DNA of 64,000 nt from Eledone cirrhosa (GCA_964016885.1 OZ024742.1:136152001-136216000), one strand, 5' to 3'; counted from the stretch's first letter, positions 22,932 through 43,660 are shown. Notes: generated by a model not told the origin, from the letters alone. Translations and numbers: made by a program.

Positions 22932-22994
22932 GTGACTATTTTGATGATTTCATGCGAATGAAACAGTTCTTGTCCTGTAGCAGTTATTTCTATA
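22932..22994 (+). ncRNA. Degenerate hammerhead, family A
   Basis: TTGATGA-tttcatgcgaat-GAAA-cagttcttgtcctg-TA-gcagtt; core C3 changed to T. Confidence 0.6.
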
Positions 22995-24159
22995 TGAAAT
23001 ATATATCTATATATATATATATATATATATATATATATATATATATATATATTTATTAAAATAACAGATTAAAGTTTAAGCAAAAATGTATATATATATA
23101 TGTATATATATGTATATGTATATATATGTATATATATGTGTATATATATATATATATATATGTATATATGTATATATATATGTATGTATATATATATATG
23201 TATGTATGTATATATATGTATGCATGTATATATATGTATGTATATATATGTATATATATATATGTATGTATATATATGTATGTATATATATGTATGTATG
23301 TATATATATGTATATATATATATATGTATATATATATATATATATGTATATATATATATGTATGTATATATATGTATGTATGTATGTATATATATGTATA
23401 TATATATATATGTATATATATATATATATGTATATATATGTATACATATATATATATACATACATACATATATATACATACATATATATATATACATACA
23501 TATATATATATATACATACATATATATACATACATATATATATATATATATATATATATATATATATATATATATATATAATTATATAGGCTCAACAACA
23601 GTTATATTATTATGTCTTCTCGCCCTCAGTTTATATCTTCAACGTTTCCTATTTCGACTGACTGTAAGTCTCTAAACCCGTTGTAGGAAATTTACTGCTA
23701 CTACTGTATTGGCAGAATCCTTCTAGTATCGGACAAAATATGCCTTGCGGTATTTATATATAGCAATTTTTAAAAGTCCTGCGTTCAAATCCCGCCGAGG
23801 TCAACTTTGCATTTCAGCCTTCCGGAACCGATAAAAATAAAACATCCTAGACGTCAATGGAATTATAATAAAAGGCAGCACAAGTCTTCTGCTACTATTA
23901 CTACTACTACTACTACAACGGTTATGTTACCATCATCATGATACTACTCTTACTGCTATTACTACCCAGTGGGCCAATATTTCCGCCGAACACAGCCTAT
24001 AATTATCATAACTGTAAAAATAATAATAATAGTTATTACTATTATCATTAAATCTATTTATATAAATCAAGTCCCGAAAAAAATAAAAGAGAAAATAATA
24101 AAAATGAGCGACGTACGACAACCACCACCACCTTACAGCAACCGCGGATCACGTTTACA

Positions 24160-24600
24160 GTGACTGCGACTACCACGATAATAGTAGCAGCAGTAGCAGC
24201 ATCAACAGCAACAACAGCAGCTGAAGTAACTTCAGTAGCAGCAACGGCAGCAGTAGTAGCGCCCACTATGACGACGACGACGACGACGATGATGATGATG
24301 GCGACGGCAACACTTAGAATTATCAGCAGCAGTAGTAAGAACTATCACTAGCACCAGCAGTAAGAAGAGTGAGTAGCAGCAGCAGTAGCAACAGTAGTAG
24401 TAGTAGCAGCAACAGAGGCAATAGTAGTAGCAACAGTAACAGCAACAACAGGAACATCGCAAAGATGATGAGGATGTACAGTATAAACCTCTTAGGATAC
24501 TAAATAACAACAAGAACAGTAGCAGCATCAGCAACAGTATAATAATACTAATAATAACAACAAATACATAATTATACCACTAGTTACTACTAATTAAACG
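24160..24600. repeat. Trinucleotide low-complexity tract (CAG/TAG/GAC/GAT/AAC)
   Basis: Direct inspection. Confidence 0.85.
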
Positions 24601-26652
24601 TTAATATTAATAACAAGATGAAGTAGAATGATGCGAAGACGACGGAGGAGAAGAAATAACAGTTTATATTGAAAGAATAACGAGGGAATTTTTTTTTTCT
24701 TTTGCCTTTTCATTCGTCTGTAAGAGACGTGAGGTCTAGCTGCTACTAGTATAATACACTATATATATATATATATATATATATATATATATATATATAT
24801 ATATATATATACACTATATATATATATATATACACTATATATATATATATATATACACACACACACACACACATATATATACATACATAAAGACATACAT
24901 ACCAGATAGTATATGCTATGTCGTACCGTTCTCTATCGTGGATATATATACCTACTTACATACAATTTGAGGAGGATATGGATAACATGTTTTCCCCTAT
25001 GATATGACCATAAAGTTTGGAACAAAAAAAAAAAAATTAAGTATTGGAAAAAAAAATAAAATAAAAATAAATACAAGTCGGATTATTTACGGGACGTTGA
25101 TTAATATTATTATCATTATTATTTTGGTTGTGTGATATTGTGCCTCTGTGTCCGTCTCTGCTGCTTCTGCAGGTTCGAGTTCGGCCGTCGGACACTTGTG
25201 TACATACATATACGTCGACATAATATACACACACGCGCAGGATATCTACCTACCTACCTACCTACCAATATATATATATATATGTATATATATGTATGTA
25301 TATATATATATATATATATGATATGTACTTCATTACGGTATGTTTCATCTTCTTTATTTTATTGTTACAATTGTTTTATATATTTGATGTTTTTGCGAAT
25401 ATATATATATATATATATATATATTTATATATATATATATTGATACTTGTATGCATATGTGTGTGTTCGATTACTCGATTATGGTATGTTTACTCATGTA
25501 TCATTATTGGAAATTATTTATACACACACACATCACATCCATACACCCCATACACACACACACACACACACACACACACACACACACACACACACACACA
25601 CACACATATGTATGTATGTATGTATGTATATATATATATATATATATATATATGTATGGCTGTGTGCGTGTGTGTTTTCTGTCCAAATGTGTATCGAATC
25701 GGATATTTTTTTAATTTTCATCTTCCGAGTTTTATTTTCATACATTGTAGTCTACACCCTTTCTCTCTCGCCCTCATATAGTTTCCTCTTTAAATATATT
25801 CATTTTTTCATTTTATATCTTTCTGTCTATCTCTCTCAGGCTTTAATACACACACACACACACACACACACACACACACACACACACACACACACACACA
25901 CACACACACACACACACACACACACACACACACACACACACACACACATATATACACACACACACACCTCTTTTTCTGTCGTCTGCTGTCTCTTCGTCTG
26001 TATGTTCGTCTACGTCTCTATCTCTCCTTCCGCTATTCCCATACTCTCTCTATCTCTTCCTCTCACTCTTTTCTTTCTCTTTCCCCCTAACTCTCTATCT
26101 AATCCTCTTTCTCTCCCTTTCTTTCTCTTTCTCTCTCTTTCTCTACCATCCGACATCTAAGTTTACTCTCTTGCTCTCTATCTCATTATCTTCATATTTT
26201 CTAATGATTCTCCACGCATCCCCCTCTCTCATAACACCCTTTTTCTCTTTCTTTCTTTCATTCTTTTTTTCTCTCTCTCTCTATCTCGTTTCCTTGTCGT
26301 CTGCTTCAGTCAATGTTCTGTCCATTTGTCGTCTGTCCTCAGTTTTATTCACTTTCCGTACGTCTATTTCTCTTTTTCTCTTTTCATTATATATGTGTCT
26401 CTATCACAGGCTCTCTTCCTCTCTCTCTCTATCTCTACATCTCTCTCTCTCTCTCTCTCTCTCTCTCTCTCTCTCTCTCTCTCTCTCTCTCTCTAGCTCT
26501 ACATCTCTCTCTCAATCACTAGCTCTACATCTCTCACTTTCTCTCTGTATATCCCTTATCTATGTCTGTCCCTTTCTCTTTTACTTATGTCTGATTTTTT
26601 TTTTCCTAGTTGTCGCTAGTCTGCATAAGTCTCCGCGACATTATTATATGCT

Positions 26653-26835
26653 TTGGCAGTATGGGTAGAGGGTCGGTCAACAGGCTTTGCAGCACAGAGT
26701 TACGCCCCTTTCTGATCTAAGTTCAAATCCTACCGAGGTTAACTTTGCCTTTCATCCTTACGGGGTCGATAAAATAAAGTAGCAGTAATGAACTGGGATA
26801 ATTGCTGGCTTTGTGCCAAAAGTAGAAACAATTAT
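26653..26835 (+). mobile_element. SINE family 1
   Basis: Same head, domain and tail as 16401-16578. Confidence 0.9.
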
Positions 26836-27295
26836 TATATATGTATTACATTTAGTTTATAGTCTTCTCGTCTCGCCGTCGGATTTTTCTATCAATCCGT
26901 ATAACTATGAAACATTCAATCAAACAGTTAGTCAATATATTAATCTATCAATGTAATTCATTTTCTTACTATATATAAAAATGAACTATAAACAAATTCT
27001 CTTCGTAAATTCTACTCTACATGTGTATTATATGTTACTAGTATGCATATGGGGATATGTATAAGTATATGTGTATAATTGTATATATATATATATATAT
27101 ATATATATATATATATATATATATATATATATGTATATATGTATATAAAGCATGTATGTATAATAAATAATATATAAATATATCATAATAATAATATATA
27201 AATATATACATATTTGAAATGTATATAACGTGTGTGTGTGTAAGTATACGTTATATATAATACAATATATAACAGATATTGAATATATATATATC

Positions 27296-41490: not shown

Positions 41491-42127
41491 AAATGTTTTA
41501 AATAATACGGCATTTTACAGACGTACTCTTGAACACATATCAACAAACAAACACATATATATGCATCTCTCTCTCTCTCTCTCTCTCTCTCTCTCTCTCT
41601 CTCTCTCTCTCTCTCTCTCTCTATATATATATATATATATATATATATATATATATATATATATATATATATATATATATATATATATATATATCGAGCA
41701 AACAAACAAACAAGAGGGTGCAATAACATAATGTATTAGTTTCACGCTTAAAATTCAACGCATCGGGTATTGGGCCTTCATCGGGAAAAGCGGAAAGAAA
41801 TAATAAAAAATGTATTAAAATAAAATTAGAAAGAAAATAGAAAGAAGTGGGGAAGAAACGGGAGCAGTAATGTGTGGGGGAGTGATTTGGCCTGCAGGAG
41901 AGGTGGTAGTGGTTAGGGATACAGTCGTGTAGGTGGGGTGTATATTATGAGTGTGGGTGTTAAAATGTGTTGTTGTTGGAAGTATGTGCACGCAGATGCA
42001 TGAGTATGCACACAAAAACACATGTGCACACACACACATACACACACACACACATATACATATATATATATATATATATATATAAATGCACAGACACACA
42101 TACACACAAACTCATATATATATATAA

Positions 42128-42290
42128 AACAAAGGAAATGTGGTAAGGAACCAGATGGGCCATAACACACCAGAGTACTCAATACTTAGGGTAGTAGAGT
42201 GGGAAATAGGAAAAAGTATGACCCCAACGGCAGAGCTCAAGCCGTTTCGACGGCTATTTCTGGAAACCGTCGGGGTCATACTTTTTCCTA
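42128..42290 (-). mobile_element. Family B element with short inverted arm
   Basis: Minus strand gacccc-gacggtttccagaaatagccgtc-GAAA-cggc-ttgagctct-gccg-TT-ggggtc plus tail nearly identical to 30985-31120. Confidence 0.8.
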
Positions 42291-42950
42291 TATATATATA
42301 TATATATATAATATATGTGCATGCAAATATAATATGTAATATATATATATATATATATATATATATACACACACACACACACTACACACACATATATATT
42401 GGTGTGTATAAATATGATTGTAAATACGTATAAATATATATATATATAATACACACACACCACTGCGCATTTGTATATTATGTAAAATTCTACATGTATA
42501 TCCAGTTCACCATGCTGATATAATAATTGTCGCTATCGTTTACCGAAATACATTTAATAAAAATACACTCTCTATACCATTAAATGAATATACACATTCC
42601 ACAGAAATATACTACTGCGGTTGTGGCTGTAAACTTACAAAGCACACTTGTTCAGGTGATCGTCTGTGACTGTCTGTGGGCCGTAAGCAGAGGTATGCAC
42701 ACACGCACAAGCATTTTTTTTTTTTCATTGTAGATATGCGCGTAATTGTCAGTCTGGTCAACTTTCAGAACAGACACATACATACACATAATTCCACGCA
42801 CACACACACACACATGGATGTATGCATATACATAGAGGTATATAAATATGCATGTGTAATGGATATATATTTATATATGTATATATTATATATATATATA
42901 AATGTATAAATATATTTGTAAATATATATGTGTGTGTGTGTGTGTATATA

Positions 42951-43136
42951 ATAATTGTTTCTACTTTTGGCACAAGGCCAGCTATTACCCCAGTGTATTA
43001 CTGGTACTTTATTTTATCGACGCCGTAAGGATGCAAGGCAAATTTTACCTCGGCGGGATTTGAACTCAGAATGGCAAGGACCGTATCTCAATGCGTCAAA
43101 GCATGGCGTCCGGCCCTCTACCGATACTGCCAATCT
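42951..43136 (-). mobile_element. SINE family 1
   Basis: Shared head, domain and tail. Confidence 0.85.
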
Positions 43137-43432
43137 ACGGCACAAATATATAATATATATATATATATATATATATATATAATATGTATGTGTAGGTATA
43201 TATATAATATATACATGTGTAGATATATGTATATAATATATGGGATATGTGTGTGTAAATATAAATTTGTATACATTTATATATAATATATATGCTTATT
43301 TATATGTAACATGTGTACATAATATCTATATTTATATATAACATATGTGTGTGTGTGTGTATATAACAGGATATATATATATATATATATATATATATAT
43401 ATATATATATATATATATATATATATATATAT

Positions 43433-43660
43433 CCTGATGATTTCTCACGAATGAAACAGTTCTAGTCCTGTAGAAGCTCTTCTATATTAAAACTTGTATA
43501 CTCTGCTATGTATTGAGTACCTTACTTACTGTGGTTACCTTCGATTCTAACCGGAATAAATTATATATATATAAGTGTATCCCGGGTTCAATCTGGGGTG
43601 ACCACGGTAAGTAGGGTACTCGATATTTCTCCCGAATGAAACAGTTCTAGTCCTGTAGAA
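43433..43660 (+). mobile_element. Family A hammerhead element plus rearranged second copy
   Basis: CTGATGA-tttctcacgaat-GAAA-cagttctagtcctg-TA-gaagctc (43434-43479), tail to 43555, inverted tail 43580-43625, then a second GAAA...ctgTAgaa half. Confidence 0.8.

Follow-up and report, generated by a model that had tools for sequence, protein, structure and literature searches.

The closest described systems to the one considered here are the hammerhead ribozymes of Penelope-like retrotransposons (PLEs). Elements of the Hydra clade, as characterised in section 11 and associated passages of Craig et al. 2021 (PMC8557442), are short, with a C-terminal GIY-YIG domain, the change of DKG to DKT, an RWK motif and a CxCX5C linker; CCHH is absent, a CxxC/CxH is possible around conserved E and N, insertion is into (TA)n, and hammerheads are readily found. 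For PAc of Anolis carolinensis, the pertinent part of Frangieh et al. 2024 (PMC11167929) places the cut 26 bp after the start codon and the start of reverse transcription 111–118 bp into the open reading frame (ORF), i.e., 85–92 nt past the cut. Here we analyse a repeat, family A, in a stretch of 64,000 nucleotides of Eledone cirrhosa DNA (GCA_964016885.1 OZ024742.1:136152001-136216000, one strand), hereafter the window. Very probably, family A is a hammerhead-ribozyme module in the pseudo-long terminal repeat (pLTR) of a Hydra-clade PLE, present in more than 30,000 copies and predicted to self-cut the transcript after the UA that follows stem III.

Copies of the Motif and Anatomy of the Repeat

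A search of the window with the 25-mer GAATGAAACAGTNCTAGTCCTGTAG, allowing up to three mismatches, revealed six matches (22956+, 27296+, 37915-, 37973+, 43449+ and 43634+), while none were obtained in 100 dinucleotide shuffles used as a control. Read base by base, the copies follow the consensus CUGANGA-U-UUC-N4-GAA-U-GAAA-CAG-N8-CUG-UA. An earlier note, made from the sequence alone, had listed five copies sharing GAAA-cag...ctg-TA; all five are real, a sixth at 37915 on the minus strand had been missed, and the shared string is present in all six. The arrangement t-ttc-NNNN-gaa-t was likewise found in the four copies said to retain stem II, with the loops atgc (22952-55), atct (37969-72), tcac (43445-48) and tccc (43630-33), and loop 2 of the minus-strand copy at 37915 is also atct. 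The central ctag ascribed to loop 3 occurs in five of the six copies, the copy at 22967-74 having cttg instead.

In the 3.0-Gb genome we counted 31,645 exact matches to the 25-mer and none to its reversed control. The layout of the repeat was determined from the aligned copies of 30 loci. Its 5' part comprises a CCAAT box, TATAAATACC, a spacer of about 20 nt, AGAUUC (the 5' strand of stem I) and CUGAUGA; the middle part consists of U-UUC-N4-GAA-U, GAAA, CAG-UUCUAGUC-CUG and U-A, followed by the predicted cut; and the 3' part contains GAAUCU (the 3' strand of stem I) and a 91-nt tail ending in ...CCGGAAUAACGUA, after which (TA)n begins. Insertions terminate in (TA)n, 91 nt past the predicted cut. 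The majority of copies consist of a short 3' fragment; many form head-to-head inverted pairs, and some form tandem arrays.

The CCAAT (caaccaatgacc) and TATAAATA boxes are located 36–90 nt upstream of CUGAUGA (L025:1394-1459 and homologous copies). To judge from the position of the TATA box, transcription starting about 30 nt after it would begin on the 5' strand of stem I. The same strand, as the putative start, lies near the joints of many inverted pairs.

Head-to-head (-,+) inverted pairs are frequent: 21 of them account for 42 of the 100 first-listed exact matches, and in the window the sixth copy forms the left arm of a near-perfect inverted pair (37899-38013). One could propose that such pairs are hairpin genes or foldback DNA transposons, i.e., microRNA (miRNA) precursors or miniature inverted-repeat transposable elements, and that their likeness to hammerheads is incidental; besides the frequency of the pairs, the similarity of 37899-38013 to hairpin models of plant and animal miRNAs (70.5 bits) would fit this proposal. 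That similarity, however, is below the gathering score of 100 and generic to any long perfect hairpin, the junctions between the arms vary (the 25-mers start 40–76 bp apart), and the arms are ordinary 5'-truncated copies of an ORF-bearing retroelement, for which inverted 5'-truncated copies are a described insertion signature in the case of PLEs (Craig et al. 2021, PMC8557442, in the passages on insertion). We regard this explanation as extremely improbable, and the motif is a module of a PLE pLTR rather than a free-standing RNA gene.

A tandem array of 12 head-to-tail units of 1,027–1,113 bp was found at C1:83.68 Mb (G000:C1:83679001-83693000; L097, L098), each unit consisting of the tail, about 340 bp of (TA)n/(TG)n microsatellite, a 5' region of about 560 nt and the hammerhead. 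An 819-codon PLE frame is located directly upstream of the array (L124). The layout of the array resembles that of a retrozyme. Contigs of sequencing run X1 contain rare joints leading from about 1539-1544 back to 1466-1471 of L025 with 1–5 extra bases, which would imply head-to-tail units of about 78 nt comprising the hammerhead only; these joints are covered tens to hundreds of times, the motif itself millions of times. The element is also present at high identity in contigs of runs X4 and X6, which represent two other organisms, one 195-nt contig matching L025:1359-1530 with no difference. It follows that close relatives also have the family, or that it is very recent in them.

Identity of the Element

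The starting query for a genome search was a 238-aa ORF remnant beside two inverted copies (L031/L032), which themselves represent a degenerate inverted pair with a GIY-YIG remnant only. Of the 63,729 first-look candidates obtained, 150 were scored, and many of these have open frames of 758 aa. In L123 (minus strand), two hammerhead motifs lie 5,966 bp apart around an open frame of 758 codons, the start of which falls within the tail of the first motif, and the full-length element is composed of a pLTR (CCAAT and TATA boxes, hammerhead, 91-nt tail), the ORF and a second pLTR.

The 758-aa frame carries two motifs resembling those of reverse transcriptases (RT), LDIENYY and YRDDG, as well as SSDKTKN (DKT), IRWRAF (RWR, not RWK), CNCLNKEAC (CxCX5C) and a C-terminal IVY...YIG block; CDLC precedes ISESYE, and CPNCMH follows LLNK. 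The Hydra-clade marks DKT, CxCX5C and CxxC/CxH are found in this frame by reading its motifs against the published description, and other traits of the clade, namely hammerhead pLTRs, the (TA)n target, and tandem and inverted 5'-truncated insertions, are also present. Matches to profiles carry less weight than these motifs; the match of the 758-aa ORF to the Pfam GIY-YIG family is weak (15.7 bits versus a cut-off of 22.6, E 0.019), while two homologues, P0001 and P0053, score above this cut-off (26 bits). Neighbour clusters in the atlas carry HTH_animal, DUF8422, GIY-YIG and RVT_1, which we take as a lead only. A PDB sequence search returned nothing useful, and no ORFs were found in the 1.5 kb upstream of ten copies. 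Based on these motifs, the element is filed as a putative Hydra-clade PLE.

Two other assignments were considered. The Naiad clade, suggested by (TA)n targets and high copy number, was rejected in view of the putative C-terminal GIY-YIG, DKT and CxCX5C. A short interspersed nuclear element (SINE) of tRNA origin, suggested for the tail by its GGTTC-like words, was abandoned since the tail is the 5' leader of the ORF.

Structure and Constraint of the Hammerhead Within the Genome

The hammerhead core of the motif is complete. Stem I is open (type I), stem II has 3 bp between two invariant U residues, and stem III has 4 bp and carries a part-palindromic loop of 8 nt. The type I core, C3 U4 G5 A6 N7 G8 A9, G12 A13 A14, A15.1-U16.1 and H17, is present in the main sequences of the family. 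To sample copies without reference to the hammerhead, we used the flanking anchors ATAAATACCA ... GTATTGAGTACCTTAC; the first 96 listed of the 2,274 hits comprised 90 distinct copies. Of the 90, 69 combine an intact core with complete stems II (3/3 pairs) and III (4/4) and a stem I of at least 5/6 pairs. The U-U that the earlier note had placed at the base of stem II proved correct, as U10.1/U11.1 occurs in 88 of these copies in place of G10.1-C11.1, the pair that closes helix II and is highly conserved, though not obligatory, in hammerheads. In 408 genome copies with another base at position 10.1, U11.1 is retained and no preference for pair-forming bases was detected; these copies look like products of decay.

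Substitutions were divided into private ones, seen in no more than two copies, and shared variants, seen in at least three copies and taken as differences between lineages. Private substitutions affect 26 of 2340 site-copies in the core and stems II and III (1.1%), 15 of 1170 in the loops (1.3%) and 69 of 4440 in the flanks (1.6%), with p = 0.16 for core versus flanks. Shared variants amount to only 3 of 2340 site-copies in the core and stems II/III, compared with 120 of 1170 in the loops and N7 and 337 of 4440 in the flanks; these cells are not independent, and the tiny p-values calculated from them are not probabilities. Equal mutation rates in loops and stems, which the earlier note had named as telling against its view, are thus seen for private mutations, which represent dead copies, and not between lineages. 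The combination of even private mutation and constraint at the level of lineages is what is predicted for a functional retroelement module.

The pairing of the stems was evaluated over 68 distinct sequences, in which 93.9% of cells are paired as opposed to 32–47% with slid partners. Cells with changes on both sides of a pair numbered 25 versus 9.2+/-2.2 in shuffles, all of them in stem I, where one A-U pair has become C-G in 16 cells and U-G in 5, and another A-U pair has become G-C in 4; stem I therefore covaries between subfamilies. Stems II and III are invariant in this set, which is informative in neither direction. Among the Logan contigs of four runs, those of the deep ones (X1 and X5) vary within the motif, at 10% or more of the depth, in loop 2 only; one further variable position, at the base of stem III, comes only from the low-depth run X6.

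It could be argued that the conservation merely reflects the youth of a recently amplified repeat in which CUGANGA and GAAA occur by chance, with no selection on RNA structure. The private substitutions, as common in the core and stems as in flanks and loops, would agree with this view, as would the retention of U11.1 in the 10.1 variants with no excess of pair-forming bases and the invariance of stems II and III within the genome. Youth alone does not explain why between-lineage differences are near-absent in the core and stems while being frequent in loops and flanks, nor the compensatory changes in stem I. This explanation is already contradicted by the lineage-level constraint together with the hammerheads of relatives described below, in which the architecture is kept beside the ORF although the flanks cannot be aligned, and all three helices covary; we consider it highly improbable, slightly less so than the hairpin or foldback proposal.

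Hammerheads of Distant Relatives

Comparison across relatives tests selection on the fold more strongly than comparison within the genome. An alignment of the ORF protein with 21 homologues led to 77 metagenome loci encoding relatives with 34–45% protein identity. These loci were examined with a descriptor comprising CUGANGA, GAAA, U-H, at least four stem I pairs and at least three stem III pairs, which required nothing of stem II. A hammerhead was found on the ORF strand in 38 of the 77 loci and on the opposite strand in one. Among 41 distinct motifs, positions 10.1/11.1 are occupied by U/U in 15, G-C in 15, A-U in 4, G-U in 3 and other combinations in 4. All 15 U/U motifs have 3–11 inner stem II pairs, formed by eight different helices (CGC/GCG, UCUC/GAGA, UGCUCC/GGAGCA and others). 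Since U/U recurs in relatives with a covarying stem II, a U on each side is a feature conserved in part of the clade and not a result of decay.

RNAalifold analysis of five own and 15 related sequences recovered the three hammerhead helices unaided, with compensatory changes in 9 of 11 pairs. The covariation of stems I, II and III across relatives supports each of the helices expected of a type I hammerhead.

Detection by Rfam

At the gathering threshold, Rfam gave no Hammerhead match in the window (the 34 bits of RF00163 were not reached); at E<=10 no match was obtained on slices with full copies (window 43425-43500 and L025:1440-1560), nor at E<=1 on ten related loci. A relative with G-C at 10.1/11.1 aligned end to end with Rfam Hammerhead_1 (RF00163), scoring 13.3 bits versus the gathering score of 34. 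The suggestion of the earlier note that standard models could miss the variant was right in that Rfam is blind to the U-U copies; this blindness is not particular to the U-U, as the G-C relative is also below the threshold. The PLE type as a whole thus escapes the standard Rfam model, and the U-U form does so to the greatest extent. Annotation relying on Rfam is blind to these cores, so the number of ribozymes in genomes of this kind will be underestimated by orders of magnitude.

Predicted Folding and a Possible Mechanism

Co-folding of two copies predicts a double hammerhead with one long helix III and with stems I formed in trans. The predicted energies of the co-folds are -21.2 and -30.0 kcal/mol, compared with -11.2 and -19.6 kcal/mol for two monomers, and the helix III duplex is estimated at -12.8 and -15.2 kcal/mol versus -1.4 kcal/mol for the hairpin. 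The idea of the earlier note that a palindromic stem III would favour dimers thus holds at the level of prediction, helix III with its loop being near-palindromic and the modelled co-fold favouring the double hammerhead. This agrees with the dimer mechanism proposed for PLE hammerheads with a palindromic helix III (Cervera & de la Pena 2014, PMC4209133).

One could hypothesise that the stem III regions of two copies, located in one transcript or in two RNAs, would pair into one long helix to form a double hammerhead, in which each core would cut the partner's site between UA and G. Such cutting may trim read-through or multimeric RNA of the element to unit length. By analogy with the in vitro behaviour of Anolis PAc, uncut RNA would be reverse-transcribed from a point about 91 nt past the cut site.

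The U-U would likely stack as a non-Watson–Crick pair on A9-G12, replacing the usual G10.1-C11.1. In the classical ribozyme, the purine G10.1 helps to hold a divalent metal beside A9. As a tentative proposal that we do not favour, the U10.1-U11.1 hammerheads of the Hydra type may be active without G10.1 and constitute a distinct subclass with a different metal requirement, the 8-nt loop 3 may act as a switch between hairpin and dimer, and the family may be among the most abundant ribozyme families of animals. The conserved U-U beside the catalytic core, in combination with the covarying stem II, represents a natural experiment on the role of G10.1-C11.1.

Uncut RNA in the Genomic Record

Several observations weigh against a self-cutting ribozyme of a PLE. 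Pfam RVT_1 gave no match to the 758-aa ORF, whose putative identity as an RT comes from the reading of LDIENYY and YRDDG along with the atlas leads. Stems II and III neither vary nor covary over the 68 distinct sequences of the genome and are supported by the relatives only. For the monomer of the main subfamily, the hammerhead fold has a predicted energy of -5.3 kcal/mol, while the minimum free energy of -5.6 kcal/mol belongs to a different fold (z about 0); for the window copy 37952-38002 the corresponding values are -6.7 and -9.8 kcal/mol, and UUC can slip onto GAA of the core GAAA, giving a competing register. The junction across the predicted cut site, GUCCUGUA directly followed by GAAUCUCAUC... 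(GUCCUGUA followed by GAAUCUC), is intact in 11,549 exact copies, which record uncut RNA, while tails with a base other than A before G1.1 number only 87, in a search whose pattern also demanded a base other than G 14 bases upstream. The hammerheads of metazoan PLEs are inefficient cleavers in vitro (Cervera & de la Pena 2014, PMC4209133), and for PAc, according to the corresponding part of Frangieh et al. 2024 (PMC11167929), mutants of the hammerhead core show unchanged insertion in vitro and RNA-seq ends at the cut site are absent.

A hand count of the 87 tails assigns 46 to an inverted hammerhead that meets the tail at stem I; A17 mutants or indels make up 7, and the remaining 34 are of other kinds. 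In the first group (e.g., G000:C1:125871695), the reverse complement of the 5' end of a hammerhead (...AAAUCAUCAG) is joined exactly at G1.1 of the tail, so that one hammerhead lies between two inverted tails, an arrangement that would lengthen stem I into a long hairpin. The joint of these 46 loci coincides with both the predicted cut site and a 6-nt microhomology, and template switching on the AGAUUC/GAAUCU microhomology could have produced them. The genomic copies show no sign of cleaved RNA having been copied.

These data raise the alternative that the motif is kept as a folded RNA handle, recognised by the RT or endonuclease or placing the start of reverse transcription 91 nt downstream, with self-cleavage being dispensable or vestigial. 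The contrast between 11,549 intact junctions and at most 34 tails with unrelated sequence at G1.1, the normal insertion of PAc mutants and the weak predicted monomer fold are what such a role would produce, and hammerheads may merely ride along with PLEs, Naiads thriving without them (Craig et al. 2021, PMC8557442, in its remarks on Naiads). Nevertheless, all catalytic-core nucleotides, for which a binding hairpin would have no need, are fixed between subfamilies, as evidenced by the three shared variants among 2340 site-copies, they are also kept across relatives with 34–45% protein identity, and the H17 and A15.1-U16.1 rules are observed. Moreover, a cut at the upstream pLTR copy would be invisible in the 3' fragments that were counted. 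We consider a handle of this kind unlikely, although it is the most serious of the alternatives, and continue to favour the self-cutting pLTR module. The record of uncut RNA in the genomic copies adds to the question of what purpose PLE hammerheads serve.

Copies and Other Features of the Window

The copies located in the window are listed in Table 1. The whole catalytic core is present in only two of the six, 37958+ and 43434+, and according to blastn comparison with the full-length element, the window contains pLTR fragments only and no ORF.

Table 1. Hammerhead-related features of the window, numbered from its first nucleotide.
Feature	Position	Strand	Motif	Predicted cut after	Tail and surroundings
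Degenerate copy	22941..22979	+	TTGATGA, C3 and U4 lost; U-UUC-AUGC-GAA-U, GAAA, CAG-UUCUUGUC-CUG, UA; 1 mismatch to the 25-mer	22979	Tail divergent, runs into (TA)n (blastn vs. full-length element)
5'-truncated copy	27296..27335	+	Begins at stem II GAAU; CUGANGA half missing	27319	Right after (TA)n; short tail (GAAGUCAUUUCUAUAU)
Left arm of inverted pair	37899..37954	-	Reverse-complement hammerhead; 3-base deletion within CUGANGA (CTGA-TTTC)		Start of tail; tail homology extends leftwards to ~37830 (37950-37830 matches element tail, 84%; blastn)
Complete hammerhead motif, subfamily A2	37952..38013	+	Stem I GGCUUC/GAAGCU (6 bp); CUGAAGA at 37958-64; U-UUC-AUCU-GAA-U, GAAA, CAG-UACUAGUC-CUG, U-A	37996	Tail interrupted by (TA)n
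Intact-core copy	43433..43563	+	CUGAUGA at 43434-40; loop 2 UCAC; stem I 5' strand replaced by (TA)n	43472	Whole ~91-nt tail, ends in (TA)n; 43405-43559 90% identical to full-length element (blastn)
Rearranged fragment	43580..43661	+	Hammerhead beginning at U10.1, UUUC-UCCC-GAAU-GAAA-CAG..CUG-UA; CUGANGA missing	43657	Fused to inverted tail piece 43580-43625
Second, unrelated hammerhead motif	39178-39256	-	UUUCAUU-CUGAUGA; 11-bp stem II closed by U-A; GAAA-CC-ACU-GG-U-A followed by AAUGAAA; stem I perfect, 7 bp		(TA)n on both sides

An exact 40-mer of the second, unrelated motif occurs 50 times in the genome, including several (-,+) inverted pairs, and this motif probably represents the hammerhead of a different PLE family. 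At 23040-23084 and 60280-60312 of the window, (TA)n is followed by a short repeat (tttattaaaataacagattaaagtttaagcaaa), which is also found after the second pLTR in L123. The region 22000-44500 consists mostly of (TA)n, (GA)n and (TG)n microsatellites, and the hundreds of sub-threshold hits of Rfam miRNA models to it are noise.

Comparison with Known Hammerhead Systems

The claim of the earlier note that the motif represents a variant hammerhead class did not survive comparison with published elements, as it is the hammerhead of Hydra-clade PLEs, and U/U has already been tabulated by Craig et al. 2021. In Supplementary File S2 of that paper (PMC8557442), 'ctgaNgat'-stem II-'tgaa' is found in 13 among the 20 distinct Hydra-clade rows compared, including Hydra-1/2_aJap, Hydra-1_cRog and ten Penelope-N_HM families. 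The Drosophila willistoni row in the supplementary alignment of Cervera & de la Pena 2014 (PMC4209133) also has a U on both sides of helix II. The U-U is not discussed as a pair in the passages of Craig et al. 2021 compared here, where the motifs are called canonical, or in Cervera & de la Pena 2014; Lunse et al. 2017 lies outside this comparison. What appeared to be a new ribozyme class is a well-placed PLE hammerhead, and a single Hydra-clade PLE has spread at least 31,645 hammerhead cores through a 3-Gb genome.

Like the Hydra-clade hammerheads in the description of Craig et al. 2021 (PMC8557442), the motif is of type I and lies some 100 nt before the 3' end of its element, which is short, inserts into (TA)n and has a putative GIY-YIG in C-terminal position. 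Common to both are CUGANGA followed by U, a stem II of 3–5 bp, a loop of 3–6 nt and U before GAA, as well as a stem III beginning with AC (acag, actc and similar) and a cut following U-H. In contrast to the hammerheads covered there, stem II is UUC/GAA, with two A-U pairs and one G-C, loop 3 has 8 nt (UUCUAGUC) instead of 1–3 nt, and exact cores number at least 31,645. With a loop 3 of 8 nt, the monomer hairpin is sterically possible.

The minimal metazoan PLE hammerheads (PMC4209133) are similar in being located in pLTRs, in having a palindromic helix III and loop 3, for which action as a dimer was proposed, in the extra nucleotide after A9, and in their opposite-strand pairs and massive dispersed copies, most of which are truncated. 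Their consensus, CUGANGA-H-G....C-GAAA, has a 'highly conserved G10.1-C11.1', a helix II of 6–8 bp and a helix III of 1–2 bp, while the hammerhead described here has no G-C at this position, a short helix II and a 4-bp helix III. Rfam Hammerhead_1 (RF00163) shares the core and the type I topology and differs in leaving the U-U copies unmatched even at E<=10.

As in the Poseidon element PAc, for which we rely on portions of Frangieh et al. 2024 (PMC11167929), the hammerhead adjoins the start of the ORF, the 91-nt tail matches the distance of 85–92 nt, and uncut RNA is the substrate. The differences are that PAc belongs to another PLE clade, that its ORF overlaps the hammerhead, and that its activity was measured, while here it is predicted from sequence.

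Units of the array at C1:83.68 Mb are 1,027–1,113 bp long, including the microsatellite of about 340 bp, and are known from DNA alone, in which they differ from animal non-LTR retrozymes. Units of the latter are 170–400 nt long and give circular RNAs. An apparent likeness lies in the non-coding tandem units derived from PLE pLTRs with one type I hammerhead each, as set out in the relevant parts of Cervera & de la Pena 2020 (PMC7229834) and of the preprint of Li et al. 2026 (10.64898/2026.07.22.740005). Among all these systems, the family A hammerhead is particular in its 8-nt loop 3, its weak UUC/GAA stem II and its copy number.

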